DNA of 64,000 bases from a phage, in sequence record OZ346212.1; one strand, given 5' to 3'. Under the pieces are notes generated by a model, which searched no databases, was not told the DNA's origin, and saw only the letters and a list, made by a program, of their open reading frames with translations. Positions 1,521 through 29,888 of this stretch are shown one piece after another (the stretch's first letter is position 1; each line of letters begins with the position of its first letter). The position numbers and the translations under genes are program-made.

Positions 1521-3944
1521 ATGAGCATGTGGTCGTTCGACTTTGAGTCATCCGGTTTGCTGGAAGACCCAGATCTTTATTATCACTGCGGCCTGTTTAA
1601 AGAGCTGAATAAGAACCGTTTTATGCTGTTCCTTCCTCTAAATGACCGCACACACTACTCCGAGGAGGATATAGAAAAGGCTAAGAACTTCATTCTGGCA
1701 AAGAAAACTCTTTATAAAGATTTTGAAGTTCGCATAGCAGATTTTTCAGAGTTGGAAGGTTGGCTTACAGGAAATTCTGACTGGTCACCAACAGCTTTGA
1801 ACTGCCATAACTGCTACAGTTATGACTTTATGCTGATGGAAAGATTATCTGGTATTCATTTTGATATGTTCCGTGATCCTAAGTGTATGGGGACTATCAA
1901 CGATCACCAGGTTAACCTGTTTGATACGTTGGCGATGAGCCGAATCTTGTGGCCTGATCGCCCTTTACCAAAAGGTTGTCCGGACTCTGTATTCAACCCG
2001 GTTACTAAGAAAATGCAGCCTGTTGGTCCTCACGGCCTTATGGCATGGGGCTACGCCCTTGGTAACCAGAAAGTTCAAATTGATGACTGGCGCGATCTTC
2101 CGTTATGGAAGTATGTGGATCGTGTATTTGAGGACGTTATCATCCAGGAGCTGCTCTGGAAAGAGCTGGTAGCGGAATCAAAAGGTGTATTCTACGGCAA
2201 ATCTGACATGCAGAACTTTATGTACGATCCTGCCAAAGAGAAGCCGAAAGGGTTCAAGAAGATCACCTGGAAGAACGCATTACGTCGAGGCATGTTGCAG
2301 CACTTCCTGATGGAGCTGCAGGCCCGTCAGGGTGTATACTTCGACATAGATGGGGCTATTGCTTTACGTGACCGCTGCGATGCGTGGATGAAAGAGATCG
2401 CTGATCGTGTTGAACCACAACTGCCTTTAAAAGAGCTGTCAATGTCTCAGCGGCCCAAGTTCCCTGAAAAGCCGTTTAACCAAGATGGGACAATCTCTAA
2501 TAATGGTTGGAAATGGTTAAAAGATAAGCTTGGCTATCCTGTGGACATGAGTGCTTTAGAGTTCAAAGCCCCACCTAAGCGAGCATTTACCTCTACAGGA
2601 GATGTCAGTAAGATGGGGATAAAATGGTGTGAAGAGATGGGCTGCAAAGACCACGATAAGATGGCTGATTTCTTGAGAGGTTATATTAAGGGCACCTCCA
2701 CACCACAACCTTTACCTAAAGAGCTGATGGATCAGGCAATAAGCGATCTGCAACAGAAGCGAATGCCTGACTGCAAGATACCTATGAAAATCAGCAATCA
2801 GGACGACATTAAGCGATACCTGATCAGTGCTGGTTGGCTTCCGACAATGTGGAGAACTAAGGATGTAACTAAGGACAGCAAGAAGAAAGCTCTACCTGAT
2901 GCAGATGTTGATGCACGAGTATATGCATACATGGACGAGCTTTTAGAGTCAGAGTATTGTGACCTAATTATCAACTTCTGGAACAAAACTGATGCTAAGT
3001 TTCAGACAACAGTGCACAAGTTCCGAAGCTTTCCTAACTCCGAAAGGATTAAAAAGGAAGTGTTCGGGAAAATACGCAGAAAAGCCAGGGCACTTATTAC
3101 TTCTCCGCAACTGAAAGATACGTTTGGACACCTATGTCCGAATCTTGAAAAATTGAACGGAGAGATGGCTAAAGATATCGTCTTGTGGTTATCATTGCGA
3201 AACCGCAGATCGGTCCTTGATCCAATCAAGGAGGATAAGGTTGATACTGGTCTTCTTAATCACCCACGTTTGAAGATTGACCATAAGCTTCCTGCTAAAA
3301 GCTCTGGATTAACAAACACTTCCCGACAGAAACACAGTATTTGTGCAAACATGCCTAAACCATCTCCTAAAGTGGTTATGGGTAAAGAGATGCGTAGCTT
3401 GTGGGGTGTTCCTCCTGGATACTTTGAGATCGGTATTGACGGGTCCAACTTAGAGCAGCTTATCGGGGCTTGGGGTGCCTTTGAGTTCGACAACGGCTTG
3501 TACTATGATGTTGTAAGTAACGGGGACGCACACCAAAACAATGCTGAGGCATATACAAAAGTAGCAGGCAGAGAGGTGTCTCGTAACGACGGTAAACCTA
3601 TCACGTATGGGGTTATGTACGGGGCACAAAAAGATAAAGTTGCAGATATGCTGGATATCTCCCCAGAGTTGGGGCAAAGGGTGATCGATGCACTTTGGGA
3701 TGCCAACCCAGGTCTTAAGGGGCGCAAAGAGGATCTGGAGAAATTCTGGGAAGCAACAGGTAAGAAGTTTATCTACTCTTTTGATGGTCATGCTATCTGG
3801 ACCCGATCTAAACACTCTTTACTTAATGCATACCAACAAAATGGCGGCGCATCGTTGTGTGACTTAGTTGGGATACTCATGCACCATCAAATGGTGAAGC
3901 GTGGGTGGTACGATGAAGGTGTTCGTCGTATTATCTATTACCAT
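1521..3944 (+). CDS. DNA polymerase family A, exon 1
   Basis: RBS AAGGAG before ATG 1521; Exo I FDFESSG; motif B KPITYGVMYGAQ; ORF ends at the His that should start motif C (HDE). Confidence 0.85.
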
Positions 3945-4786
3945 AAATAACATTGTGGCTTCGTGCAGTGATGCACGTCGAAAACCTCTTTAATTGACGG
4001 GAAGGCTAAGTTGACTTTTACACCTAAACATGGTAAAAGCTCAATATGCTAATCCGCAGCGAAGACTAAAGGGGTGTAGTTAAAATGGCTAGATCAGTTG
4101 AGTATCACGGATATACCGTGTTTGATGATGGAACAATACCTTTATCGAAACGTGATCATACAACAATGTTTTGTTTTGATAATGGTCGAGGTTACCTTTG
4201 CGTAACCATGTTCATCGAGGGGAAGCAGTGCACAAAAGGTGTCCACCACTTGGTTGCTGAATGCTTTGTATCAAACCCTGATCCTGAAAGGCTCACATGG
4301 GTGAACCATAAGGACGGAAACAAATACAACAATGCATACTGGAACCTTGAATGGACCACCCCTGGTGGAAATATCAAACACGCTTATGATAATGACCTCA
4401 GAGTAAGGCCAGTCGGTGAGTATAATGCCAACGCTGTACTGACCGAGGATGAGGTAACGGAGATTTGCGAACTGTTACAAAGTGGTTTACGACAATGCGA
4501 GATTAGGGATCTTGGGTATCCTTATGAGACGGTCAGAGCCATAAAGCAAAGAAGACAGTGGAAACATATCTCTAAAAACTACACCTGGTAGTAACGTTCA
4601 GAGACTATCGAAAGCATAGCGCCAACATAAATTGGTGCGAAGAAGCGAGTAGAGTAGACCAGCAAGTGCGGTCGAAATGGGAGGTGCCTTGGTAACAAGG
4701 TAGTGAGATAGTCCGATCCATACAGGAAACTGTATGGCTGTGCACGTAATGGTGCGGGGTAGCTTAACGACCTACCTGAACTATTG
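3945..4786 (+). mobile_element. group I intron interrupting DNA polymerase motif C
   Basis: Exon 1 ends in T3944, intron ends in G4786; P/Q/R/S-like elements at 3994, 4051-4060 (AATCCGCAGC), 4596-4610 (GTTCAGAGACTATCG), 4705-4714 (GAGATAGTCC); contains HNH ORF. Confidence 0.7.
4085..4591 (+). CDS. HNH homing endonuclease (intron-encoded)
   Basis: RBS AAAGGGG; HNH signature NHKDGNKYNNAYWNLEW; located inside intron. Confidence 0.8.
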   Translation: MARSVEYHGYTVFDDGTIPLSKRDHTTMFCFDNGRGYLCVTMFIEGKQCTKGVHHLVAECFVSNPDPERLTWVNHKDGNKYNNAYWNLEWTTPGGNIKHAYDNDLRVRPVGEYNANAVLTEDEVTEICELLQSGLRQCEIRDLGYPYETVRAIKQRRQWKHISKNYTW

Positions 4787-5140
4787 GATGAGTACCAACT
4801 TCAAGTCCCTGACACACCGAAGTATAAGACTGTGTACACCTTCGACACAATCGAAGAACTGGAAGCATTTAAGGCAGAGCAGGAGGCCAAACTTCATGTG
4901 TTCGACGGTCATAAGTACAAAAAGGCACGCAAGGATGAGGACGGAAACGAAGTGGTTGACAGAGACGGAAACACGGTGTACGATCCTATCCTGAACGATG
5001 ACGGAAAGCTTGAACTTATCTGGAGCCCTGTGGGTGAAATGGTGGTGCATTGCTTCTGGCAAGCTTCTAAAATGATGGGCGTCCCGTTCCAGATCACGGG
5101 TGAATACCTGTGTGGTCGTAATTGGGGTGATTGTCACTAA
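4787..5140 (+). CDS. DNA polymerase family A, exon 2
   Basis: Begins with DE completing motif C (IIYYH|DEYQLQV); C-terminus GRNWGDCH matches Pol I / T7 pol ends. Confidence 0.75.
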   Translation, partial: DEYQLQVPDTPKYKTVYTFDTIEELEAFKAEQEAKLHVFDGHKYKKARKDEDGNEVVDRDGNTVYDPILNDDGKLELIWSPVGEMVVHCFWQASKMMGVPFQITGEYLCGRNWGDCH

Positions 5141-14559: not shown

Positions 14560-14623
14560 GTATTGACATACAGTCAGACACCAAATACACTAAAAGCACA
14601 AAAGACACTAAGAGGATAAAATC

Positions 14624-14809
14624 ATGAAAACCACTACCTTTAATTTTGATAATGCAGACTTTTCTTTTTCTGATGTCAAGAACTGCCGCCGTGATCGTGG
14701 ATTTTACAAGGCTTATAATCTGGTGGGCCTGGACGATGACAATAATTTGCACGAAGTAGCTGAGATCCAGCTTGACAGATTGGACGGGAAAGTACTAAAA
14801 ACTTATTGA
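14624..14809 (+). CDS. hypothetical early protein
   Basis: RBS AAGAGGA; own promoter at 14563. Confidence 0.5.
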   Translation: MKTTTFNFDNADFSFSDVKNCRRDRGFYKAYNLVGLDDDNNLHEVAEIQLDRLDGKVLKTY

Positions 14810-14811
14810 GT

Positions 14812-14856
14812 TTATTTTTAGATGGCCTTGACACCAGGGCCATCAATAAAGTAAAC
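14812..14856 (+). repeat. conserved 45-bp promoter-associated element, copy 1
   Basis: TTATTTTTAGATGGCCTTGACACCAGGGCCATCAATAAAGTAAAC; TTGACA sits in the loop of the ATGGCC/GGCCAT inverted repeat. Confidence 0.6.
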
Positions 14857-14889
14857 TAACCACAGTTGAGCGGAAAAGGAGGCTTAAAG

Positions 14890-15012
14890 ATGAGCACTAC
14901 ACGCCAGCACACAAAGGTAACCATCATCGTTTGCATCATTGGGTACATCCTGGCGCAAATGTTGATGGGTAGCGCCAACGGTGTCGCAAAATTTTTCTTA
15001 AACTTTTAATTG
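14890..15012 (+). CDS. small hydrophobic peptide (40 aa)
   Basis: Not in ORF track (<60 aa); RBS AAAGGAGG; MSTTRQHTKVTIIVCIIGYILAQMLMGSANGVAKFFLTFN. Confidence 0.45.
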
Positions 15013-20607: not shown

Positions 20608-20698
20608 AATAGTTTGACAACAAACAACCATCTAACAAAGCATAATACATAAGGTGGTAGAATGATCCGCCACCCGGAACAAAGAAGAGGTAAACACC

Positions 20699-20944
20699 AT
20701 GAAAAGCAATAAAGGTTATAACGGTTACAAAAACAAAACTCATTGGAATGTAAGCCTTTGGATTAATAACGATGAGTCATTGTACCGGTTGGCCCAAGGA
20801 TTTATTAACGCTAATGCTAATCGTAATGATGCGGCGCGGGATATGATGCTTTTTCTGGAGCTAACCGGACAAGATAAGACCCCGGACGGCTTCAAGTACA
20901 GCACTACGGCGATCCGTGCCGCGATGGTTGGAATGAAACACTAA
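20699..20944 (+). CDS. hypothetical early protein
   Basis: RBS AGAAGAGG. Confidence 0.5.
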   Translation: MKSNKGYNGYKNKTHWNVSLWINNDESLYRLAQGFINANANRNDAARDMMLFLELTGQDKTPDGFKYSTTAIRAAMVGMKH

Positions 20945-21271
20945 AAGCACATAGCCGCCAGATCTCAGAATTTACGTACGCTCACCAGTCTATAGCCTGC
21001 TAAGTATTTATTCCAACCATAGAATAACGGAATAGTCAATACCTGCATAAAATAATTATTCGTGTAAACTGCATAACATAAATCGGCTAGGATGTCAACA
21101 TTTTTCGTAAACAGCTCGAAATTATAACGGTGAGTTATAATAAACAGAGAAATCTTTAGTCGTCTAATGTTTACTGTACATTACTATACTGACTGGAATC
21201 ATTAGATGACTAAGAGAAAGATAAGAAATCATTAACAATGCAATTGTTTTATTCGTAACAATAAGGCAACT

Positions 21272-21563
21272 ATGCAAACGGATGGCATGGCGCGACGGAG
21301 TCGCGACATAATATAAAAGCAGTAACCATCACCCCCGTGATAGTTTGTCTGCAAACTATTAATCAGATCATAGTTGCCTTGTATTTAGTTAATCATGACA
21401 TAACAAGCAAGGCAACTATAGATCTGCTAATAGTTGCCCTGCTTTTATATTATGTCATAGATTATTAGCCTGTTAATTGTTAGTCAGTCAAATCAACAAC
21501 GTTATCATTTCAGTCTTTATTGTTGTTGATCGTTATTGTTATCATGCAAACGAATGGCATGGC
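21272..21563. repeat. dyad-symmetry cluster bounded by 20-bp direct repeats
   Basis: ATGCAAACG(G/A)ATGGCATGGC at 21272 and 21544; between them AGGCAACTAT in both orientations, ATGACATAA/TTATGTCAT and CGCGAC/GTCGCG palindromes. Confidence 0.6.
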
Positions 21564-21936
21564 TTATCATTTTTGAGTAAACAATCTATACGTGAACAGT
21601 GAGGCAAGTTAGCAGCCGATAGATTAGATATTAACCTGCAGACTTCTGACCGTCTAGACGTCTAAACGCCCACACAACAAGGATTATACATACAATACTG
21701 AATGTAAACAGGGCCGCAAAAATGCTACCATACCACAGATTGTAAATTTTTCATGCAGCACTTGACAAAGAGGAGAACTTAATTTTATCAGGATAGGCAA
21801 GAATGTCAAGGCATGACTGCTCACTAAACAAGCAAACAGTCATGTGTGGGAGGTAAGTGATTGTGGTGGTAGGAAATTTAGTTGAAAGATGTGTTATAGG
21901 TGCTTCCAGCACTTTAGCCGGGCAGCTAATTGTGTG

Positions 21937-27426: not shown

Positions 27427-27747
27427 TCATTCTCCAAAGTCAATCTTTACTTTGCCTTTCCCCTTACCTTTCTTTCCACCGCATTTAGCCAGCTGACGTG
27501 CTGCAACATCTACCATACGGTCAGTTGCCTCGTAAGCATCACTGCCTTTAGCCTTGGCAATAACTTCTTTTCCAGAATTGTCAAAAATGAACGCCATAAC
27601 TTCCTGGTGATCATTTTCAACTTTTACACTTACACGTGCATAGTTAACAGAGGGATGTAAACGCTCCAGCTTGGACATTTTGCGGGAAATAAAAGATACC
27701 ATACCTTCTGTGATTTCTACATTGTTGCCAGTGATTTCAATTTGCAT
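27427..27747 (-). CDS. hpf: ribosome hibernation promoting factor (HPF/RaiA family)
   Basis: MQIEITGNNVEITEGM...KLER...YEATDRMVDVAARQLAK aligns along its length with E. coli HPF as I recall it (MQLNITGNNVEITEAL...KLEQ...YAAIDGLIDKLARQLTK). Confidence 0.8.
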   Translation of the reverse strand: MQIEITGNNVEITEGMVSFISRKMSKLERLHPSVNYARVSVKVENDHQEVMAFIFDNSGKEVIAKAKGSDAYEATDRMVDVAARQLAKCGGKKGKGKGKVKIDFGE

Positions 27748-27796: not shown

Positions 27797-27825
27797 ATGA
27801 TACTAAATCTGAAGCGTTGTGTCAA
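27797..27825 (-). promoter_or_regulatory. sigma70-like promoter for hpf (TTGACA-N17-TATCAT)
   Basis: Read on minus strand. Confidence 0.5.
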
Positions 27826-27831
27826 CAGTTT

Positions 27832-28122
27832 TTACAGCTTGTTGTCGATAGTTTTTAAAATATCCACAGCAAGATCTGCCATTTTTCGAACATACTCTGC
27901 AAACTCAACAGGATCCTTGATCAAAGAATTCACAGGGTCGTACCCTAGAGCGTTTAAAATGGCTGCAGCATCTACAACCTTCTCATCATTTGCGAAGATC
28001 TCTCCGTCAAACTTGTAGGTCTATTTTGAGTCAACCTTAGCAGAGCAGGGTTTGTCCATGCTTGTTACACCATCGTCTTTAAACTCTCCTGCGTTATCAA
28101 TATTTAGAATTAAATCCATCAT
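27832..28122 (-). pseudogene. ORF interrupted by in-frame TAG (33 aa + amber + 62 aa)
   Basis: ATG 28122..28120; TAG at 28023..28021 in frame; same frame stays open to TAA at 27834..27832. Confidence 0.4.
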
Positions 28123-28139
28123 GGTGACACCTCACTGTT

Positions 28140-28538
28140 TCAGTTTAGCTTTTCTTCAACAACCCCATAACTTGGGGCAGAGTCAAGAGCTTTCTGGTTT
28201 AAAAGTGGCGTAGCAGAATCTGCAAACGGTGTCCAAGTTTTTGTTCTGGAATTCCAGTAATGCTTCACTCTGGAATCTGGATGCACTATAACAAAAACTT
28301 TTTCACTTGTCAACACATTAATTTCTTCTACACCCTTGCTGATAATTTCTCCGTCATAGCCCCCAGTCTGGTATCCTTCGTACCAGGTTCTTGCATAGGC
28401 ATAGCCAGCCTGCCAGCATGCAGCCTCCTCCGAGGTGGAGACTACGTAGAAGTCTTTCTCAAATTCCGGAATACGCCCTTGCTTTACGCTCCAAGCTCCG
28501 CGAATTTTCATTGTTACTTTGAAAAGCTTGTTCTTCAT
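28140..28538 (-). CDS. hypothetical protein, paralog of 25933..26328
   Basis: Shared motif block. Confidence 0.55.
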   Translation of the reverse strand: MKNKLFKVTMKIRGAWSVKQGRIPEFEKDFYVVSTSEEAACWQAGYAYARTWYEGYQTGGYDGEIISKGVEEINVLTSEKVFVIVHPDSRVKHYWNSRTKTWTPFADSATPLLNQKALDSAPSYGVVEEKLN

Positions 28539-28539
28539 A

Positions 28540-28794
28540 CTACCGCTCTACAATCTCTACGTCTGTTCCTACACCGAAGGCATAGTAATGTTCTTCCCCA
28601 AAGTAATACTTGGGGACACCCGCTTTGATCAGATCTAACCCGCGAATAAATACCACACCGTGTGATACAGTGGAATGCTTCTGACGCACAGGATCGTTGT
28701 CAGGCAACCATTCAAAGTACACCGCAGGTACAACCTTTCCCTTCAGGAAGGATTGTCCCAAGTAGACGTTAGAATCAAGAATTTTAACCTTCAT
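28540..28794 (-). CDS. hypothetical protein (MKVK family)
   Basis: Paralog of 28784..29011 and 32434..32667. Confidence 0.5.
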   Translation of the reverse strand: MKVKILDSNVYLGQSFLKGKVVPAVYFEWLPDNDPVRQKHSTVSHGVVFIRGLDLIKAGVPKYYFGEEHYYAFGVGTDVEIVER

Positions 28795-29588: not shown

Positions 29589-29888
29589 AATTCAGCCCCG
29601 CATAGACATAATCACTATAAATAGGCAAACAATGAATCCGAATGCCACGCCACCCATAAACGTTAATATTGATGCAATCATAGTCAATCAGCCTCGCCTG
29701 GCAACTCTTCTACCTTAACATGCCGAAAAGTGTTACCGTAATGGTTGATCCATGACATCAGCTCACTTTCTTGCTCTTCCTCTGGGATGAACTCTCGAAT
29801 ACTGACAAGTTTTAAGAAAACCTAATCACAATCTGCACCCATTCTACCAGACAGACAATAGTGCTTCATAAAAACCCTCCCGCCCGGT

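Follow-up and report, generated by a model that had tools for sequence, protein, structure and literature searches.

UAG mutants of the classical coliphages T4 and lambda are suppressible by supD, supE and supF hosts. Selection for conditional lethality yielded them in essential genes. The two amber codons described here share with them a single transition from a sense codon, here Trp TGG, to TAG, and in principle the product could be restored by a suppressor tRNA. Unlike those mutants, they lie in small accessory genes and no suppressor dependence is known for them. An in-frame stop codon that is followed by an open, protein-coding continuation is also found in recoded phages and in the A1 protein of Qbeta. 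In recoded phages that read TAG as Gln (code 15), such as crAss-like and Lak phages, in-frame TAGs are numerous, above all in late genes, TAG terminators are few and a suppressor tRNA is encoded. In programmed readthrough such as that of Qbeta A1, the stop is conserved. In contrast, the window, which is the whole 64,000-nucleotide stretch of OZ346212.1 that was analysed, has neither a suppressor tRNA nor a scarcity of TAG terminators, and its stop is not conserved. The closest described counterparts are rV5 ORF143 (YP_002003640.1), Murica gp131 (AKU44223.1) and nomo_105 (QHR66802.1). These orthologues agree with the window gene in position, in length if the stop is ignored, in the ribosome binding site and in the hpf promoter on the 3' side, and their proteins are 99-100% identical to its product outside residue 34. 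They differ from it at codon 34, which is TGG in all three and TAG in the window, where only the first 33 residues can be made.

The original prediction described a 33-codon ORF that begins with ATG at 28122 and ends with TAG at 28023..28021, with the same frame open for 62 further codons up to TAA at 27834..27832. These coordinates hold on the minus strand, and the gene is laid out as follows.

28128..28133, minus strand: Shine-Dalgarno sequence GAGGTG, 5 nt 5' of the ATG; the annotation of phage Murica has a ribosome binding site in this position
28021..28122, minus strand: 5' part of the interrupted gene, ATG plus 32 sense codons plus amber, the fast-evolving N-terminal third of the family
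28021..28023, minus strand: amber codon TAG in place of Trp34 (TGG), from the alignment with relatives
27832..28020, minus strand: 3' part, 62 codons plus TAA, the conserved C-terminal domain, reached only by readthrough of the TAG

ATG 28122..28120 opens the gene on the minus strand, and the 33 sense codons counted from it (MMDLILNIDNAGEFKDDGVTSMDKPCSAKVDSK) are closed by the TAG. Behind the stop the frame runs from TYKFDGE to TIDNKL before it reaches the TAA. The changed base is 28022, a G>A change on the coding strand that corresponds to C>T on the plus strand. Taken by itself, this arrangement is common. Counting all six frames, the window contains 104 cases in which a single stop splits two open segments, one of at least 30 and the other of at least 55 codons; in 29 of them this stop is TAG. 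We take the reality of the feature to rest on homology; the pattern alone would carry no meaning.

Sequence matches to phage records place the window among the rV5-like myophages of the genus Vequintavirus. The stretch is matched by 118 phage records at 84-99.7% identity, and phage nomo is the best match over 24 kb with 97.4%. Eighteen UNVERIFIED GenBank records labelled 'Campylobacter phage' (MG0656xx) are Vequintavirus genomes nearly identical to coliphages. Accessory-gene cassettes vary between phages that are otherwise 97-99% identical: around window positions 14600-14900 and 20630-21770, counterparts are missing in part for nomo_63/64 and entirely for nomo_78 and nomo_82-87. The DNA polymerase gene (window 1521-5140, plus strand) is split into ORFs of 809 and 118 aa, and the contiguous form in nomo is the 925-aa nomo_39. 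This split results from an insertion of ~840 bp at ~3951-4783 with a 168-aa ORF (4085-4591) that shows an HNH-type motif (HHLVAECF...NHKDGNKYNN). The inserted sequence is probably a homing endonuclease or an intron-like element.

In every annotated relative fetched (rV5, Murica, nomo, naswa, rV5_ev146, FV3, LL12, NHEP1, ECP32, 241Ecol014PP and SYGMH1), both parts of the interrupted gene form one CDS of 291 nt and 96 codons between a 132-aa gene and hpf. The order of 132-aa gene, interrupted gene, promoter and hpf is conserved with rV5, Murica, nomo, naswa, FV3, LL12 and others. At the protein level, the tblastn match is single-piece and full-length in 117 of the 118 records. With Trp restored, the joined translation matches phrog_12029 over residues 1-96 of 96 (hmmscan, E=7.2e-63). 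The uninterrupted frame of ~96 codons that characterizes phrog_12029 is absent in the window, where TAG stands at codon 34. By sequence, the locus is classed as a disrupted allele of the phrog_12029 / rV5 ORF143 group and not as an intact member.

How little else has changed becomes apparent from the nucleotide alignments. Between naswa and the window, the sole difference in 351 nt is TGG versus TAG. Murica and nomo are each one base away from the window in the ORF, and the TAG is likewise the sole difference from Murica, naswa and nomo across the 351 nt. Apart from residue 34, protein identity to these three phages is 99-100%. Codon 34 is TGG in 17 of 17 phage loci, which represent 12 distinct DNA sequences. 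A search of 5.8 billion proteins returned 36 protein clusters, nearly all with Trp34 and one with Gly, and the residue is kept in two distant homologues of ~40% identity found by exhaustive profile search. Trp34 is the only Trp codon of the gene. A recent nonsense mutation, one of the possibilities raised by the original prediction, is the one that these data favour, as the orthologues consist of one gene with TGG and those of Murica, naswa and nomo differ from the window in the TAG alone.

The two parts of the gene evolve differently among the relatives. In codons 1-33, 13 positions are invariant, 2 vary only synonymously and 18 vary in the amino acid; in codons 35-96, the corresponding numbers are 35, 20 and 7. 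The AlphaFold2 model is poor for residues 1-49. Confidence is confined to residues 50-96, with helices at 52-58 and 71-95 and pLDDT values of 74-86. Conservation is thus concentrated 3' of the stop, and the TAG would remove the functional core of the protein. The 96-residue protein has no Pfam domain, and all of its PDB profile matches are insignificant. The exhaustive profile search recovered the same narrow family and the two homologues of ~40% identity, and nothing else.

From these observations we propose the following course of events. The normally uninterrupted gene would encode a 96-residue accessory protein of the early region, the Vequintavirus orthologue of rV5 ORF143, and a single TGG>TAG transition at 28022 would have turned Trp34 into a stop. 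In a non-suppressing E. coli, translation is predicted to initiate at ATG 28122 and to end with release after 33 residues of the variable N-terminus. The helical C-terminal residues 35-96 would not be produced in a sup0 host, because there is no start codon or ribosome binding site 3' of the stop. On this second part the original prediction was accurate: the earliest in-frame canonical start is the GTG at 27933, codon 64, and the Shine-Dalgarno sequence there is not convincing. A trace of full-length protein could arise from low-level natural readthrough of UAG-A. The locus thus probably carries an ordinary Trp-to-amber nonsense allele of a normally uninterrupted gene, which would be an effective knockout or a young pseudogene.

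The gene that follows was expected to be hpf. This placement is confirmed by the match of 27747..27427 to PF02482, and the relevant elements are the following.

27427..27747, minus strand: gene for an hpf/RaiA-type ribosome hibernation factor, 106 aa, intact (PF02482, E=4.2e-15)
27797..27825, minus strand: sigma-70-type promoter TTGACA-17-TATCAT before hpf, 11/12 matches, equivalent to the annotated promoter P144 of rV5 (NC_011041)
28285..28313, minus strand: promoter-like TTGACA-17-TATAGT with an extended -10 TG, a consensus match inside the upstream 132-aa gene

The promoter-like site within the 132-aa gene is the likely source of the transcript of the interrupted gene. The hpf gene is full length and 99% identical to nomo_104. 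As it possesses its own sigma-70 promoter and ribosome binding site, polarity from the premature stop should matter little and hpf expression should be unaffected. The amber allele has no evident link to hpf. From the sequence, then, we infer loss of function, dispensability of the gene and independent expression of hpf.

The open continuation of 62 codons, encoding a conserved domain, could also point to programmed stop-codon readthrough or to a reassigned code in which TAG specifies an amino acid, with a regulated pair of short and long proteins as the outcome. We regard this reading as extremely improbable. The stop is found in no orthologue, with TGG in all relatives, and so cannot be a conserved decoding signal. 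Of 119 genes mapped in the window, 10 end in TAG, among them the one two places upstream (28543-28794). In frame, TAG is found at only 2 of 16,004 codons, and 280 TGG codons stay sense. Reassignment of the genetic code was rejected on stop-codon usage and the TGG count. Compared with shuffled sequence, the RNA surrounding the stop shows no better folding (z=-1.2), and Rfam at E<=1 returns nothing but a chance miRNA match away from the stop. A readthrough-stimulating structure or known RNA family was rejected on these grounds.

Decoding of TAG by the phage itself would require a tRNA with a CUA anticodon. That none of the three tRNAs of the window is an amber suppressor had been stated at the outset and proved correct: ARAGORN assigns them as Arg-TCT, Tyr-GTA and Ser-TGA, with no CUA anticodon in the window. 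The rest of the tRNA cluster in nomo also lacks a CUA anticodon and contains Thr, Met, Pro and an odd tRNA-like gene (ARAGORN). Six tRNAs are published for rV5, none of them a CUA suppressor (PMC3606486). On the basis of the window, the further tRNA genes of nomo and the set published for rV5, a phage-encoded suppressor tRNA was rejected. The odd tRNA-like gene is 99 nt long and follows tRNA-Ser in nomo (L016, 5055-5153), ~50 nt past the point that corresponds to the right end of the window. It is annotated as 'tRNA-OTHER', and ARAGORN gives a 4-base anticodon 'atcc'. By eye, it could be read with an anticodon UUU in a 7-nt loop and a long variable arm. Neither reading makes it a suppressor of amber codons. 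If a suppressible stop is taken to mean recoding or programmed readthrough, the suggestion is thus not sustained: the stop is not conserved, neither the window nor these relatives have a suppressor tRNA, TAG is a normal terminator and no significant RNA structure surrounds the stop.

A split into two genuine genes with both halves expressed would be a further way to account for the two open parts. Two separate genes in orthologues, which the original prediction had named as the observation that would speak against it, are seen in none of the phage genomes examined. They do exist in one lineage, represented by two metagenome assemblies, where they arise via a 1-nt deletion. The exact 33-residue peptide is encoded by two short ENA metagenome contigs, L014 (ERZ28615258 scaffold_129813) and L015 (ERZ15185785 NODE_157254), both of which end at window position 27602. 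In these contigs (L014 619-622, L015 600-603), one G is deleted from the Trp34 TGG, which changes AAATGGACC to AAATGACC. The result is a 33-aa ORF that ends with TGA and an ATGA-overlapping 63-aa ORF consisting of M and residues 35-96. The 63-aa ORF could be translationally coupled to the 33-aa ORF. Because all polymorphisms are shared, the two contigs are taken to be one lineage. Both contigs are covered very thinly, and in each the conserved domain contains a missense change not shared with the other, so the deletion is a candidate allele that needs confirmation.

The deletion allele and the window allele break the same Trp34 codon and leave an identical 33-residue peptide. They differ in that the former is a frameshift with an ATGA overlap, by which the C-terminal domain is possibly translated, whereas the TAG of the window offers no restart. 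Natural variants with the C-terminal domain alone also exist, as N-terminally truncated or fused proteins (P0029-P0036). Two of them are 75-aa forms that start at Met22, and others are deletion fusions that join an N-terminus from the 84-aa or the 132-aa gene upstream to ...DAAAILNALGY.... The locus appears to be recombinationally plastic, and these forms suggest that the N-terminal third is expendable. For the window itself, two expressed genes have hardly any likelihood. Near the TAG there is no in-frame ATG, GTG or TTG, and neither a start with a ribosome binding site nor a stop/start overlap heads the second part. We therefore retain the interpretation of a single gene interrupted by a nonsense mutation.

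The interrupted gene is not the only one of its kind in the window. A second amber codon is located 1.8 kb upstream.

29684..29869, minus strand: second interrupted gene, orthologue of the 61-aa nomo_111 (phrog_2381), TGG>TAG at codon 16

The second TAG, at 29824..29822 (C>T on the plus strand at 29823), replaces W16, the first Trp codon of the nomo_111 orthologue. Over its 186 nt, nothing else separates the gene from its counterparts in nomo, naswa and rV5_ev146. Codon 16 is TGG in six relatives, namely nomo, naswa, rV5_ev146, ECO111 5-P, C2 and C12. Both ambers are C>T on the plus strand in the first Trp codon of their gene, and at 28022 as at 29823 the TAG is one base away from a sense codon, as in the classical mutants. 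Of ~135 nomo CDS mapped to the window by tblastn, exactly 2 contain premature stops, both TGG>TAG, and none of these orthologues shows a frameshift between window and nomo.

Apart from these two stops, the variation looks like that of an ordinary natural isolate. Between 21.8 and 50 kb, 81 alleles are private to the window, that is, absent from four relatives; 45 of these are synonymous, 14 non-synonymous, 20 intergenic and 2 nonsense. The private sites show no enrichment of C>T/G>A and no shared motif. Three related genomes have zero substitution-type stops in the same 28 kb, and the low-quality C12 record has two frameshifts over the region. In this record (L022, MG065635.1, 'Campylobacter phage C12'), the apparent frameshifts fall in the orthologues of nomo_113 and nomo_115. 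General hypermutation or poor assembly of the window is ruled out by the variant spectrum and the absent frameshifts.

These data bear on the possibility of a sequencing or consensus error, in which codon 34 would in truth be TGG and the gene uninterrupted. Such an error would produce what is seen at the locus itself, where one base alone departs from the sequence of relatives, and the TAG allele is indeed unique among the 118 INPHARED records. Neither TAG allele was found in INPHARED, IMG/VR, JGI metagenomes, GTDB genomes or a gene-position index; for IMG/VR this negative result is weak, with the wild-type allele itself on only one contig there. For the TAG allele of the nomo_111 orthologue, no INPHARED record came closer than one mismatch. 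For the locus of the first TAG, a search of complete E. coli genomes gave no match, and the match in PLSDB does not go beyond 92% identity. On the other hand, random errors would yield mostly frameshifts and missense changes, in large number, and the window has no frameshifts in ~135 orthologues, as opposed to two in C12. It is improbable that a further error would reproduce this very codon change at a distance of 1.8 kb, and most private variants are synonymous. The C>T and G>A sites are without a common motif that would indicate a methylation-linked systematic miscall, and miscalls or 5mC hotspots linked to methylation motifs were discarded as a cause. Since a change of this kind is also present in the nomo_111 orthologue 1.8 kb upstream, we think that base 28022 reflects a genuine allele rather than a random miscall. 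The sequencing error considered in the original prediction is accordingly improbable.

Given two real alleles, the question is how they arose. Under unbiased mutation and with the codon usage of the window, two independent nonsense changes would both be TGG>TAG with a probability of ~0.002-0.03, a range set by the transition bias. It rises to ~0.06 if mutation is restricted to G:C>A:T and to ~0.3 if only amber is tolerated (codon counts). Two nonsense changes that are both TGG>TAG fit poorly with two unrelated spontaneous accidents. The second TGG>TAG at 1.8 kb is the only aspect of the finding that is mildly unusual. The pair may stem from two accidents, from G:C>A:T mutagenesis or a deaminase, from relaxed selection on a suppressor host, or from deliberate knockouts.

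One specific proposal is a conditional amber mutant, obtained by G:C>A:T mutagenesis, by cytosine-deaminase or designed editing, or by passage on a supE/supF host. A suppressor host would place Gln or Tyr at position 34 and some full-length protein would be made. The sequence facts are the same as for the preferred explanation, and the difference concerns origin and expression. This proposal accommodates the restriction of the two stops among ~135 genes to TGG>TAG in a first Trp codon with C>T on the plus strand, the low chance of this coincidence under unbiased mutation and the lack of substitution-type stops in the three related genomes. A purine 3' of the TAG favours suppression in E. coli, and both TAGs are followed by one (TAG-A, TAG-G). 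General mutagenesis has left no trace, however, as the private variants are mostly synonymous and their C>T/G>A changes are neither enriched nor linked to a motif. Both genes are tiny and accessory and have no known phenotype, so a classical amber selection is unlikely to have targeted them, and the closest relatives were isolated on the sup0 strain MG1655. Our literature search found nothing relevant on amber, nonsense or base-editing work in rV5-like phages and no link between Vequintavirus and amber mutants. Overall, we consider a conditional mutant unlikely, if clearly less so than a base-call error.

A related and broader view is that the two Trp>amber changes are not independent. They would then represent a made or selected double mutant, or the early proteins would be liabilities in certain hosts, for example as triggers of abortive infection, that were lost by selection. 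To this view, too, we give a small probability. The unrelated lineage with a deletion in the first gene's Trp34 codon, whose C-terminal domain would stay separately translatable, and the variants with a deleted or replaced N-terminal part would fit recurrent selection against the full-length protein. What speaks for a selection-based reading is confined to this split allele and to the N-terminal variants.

For annotation, the preferred reading of a nonsense allele means that the locus should be entered as a single disrupted gene, namely an rV5 ORF143 family allele with an internal stop. An entry as two tiny ORFs, as a site of recoding or as a protein made by readthrough should be avoided. Provided that the sequence is correct, the phage can propagate without intact orthologues of rV5 ORF143 and nomo_111. 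If the double Trp>amber change reflects selection or design, both early proteins would, speculatively, be candidates for studies of host interaction and of the triggering of host defence.
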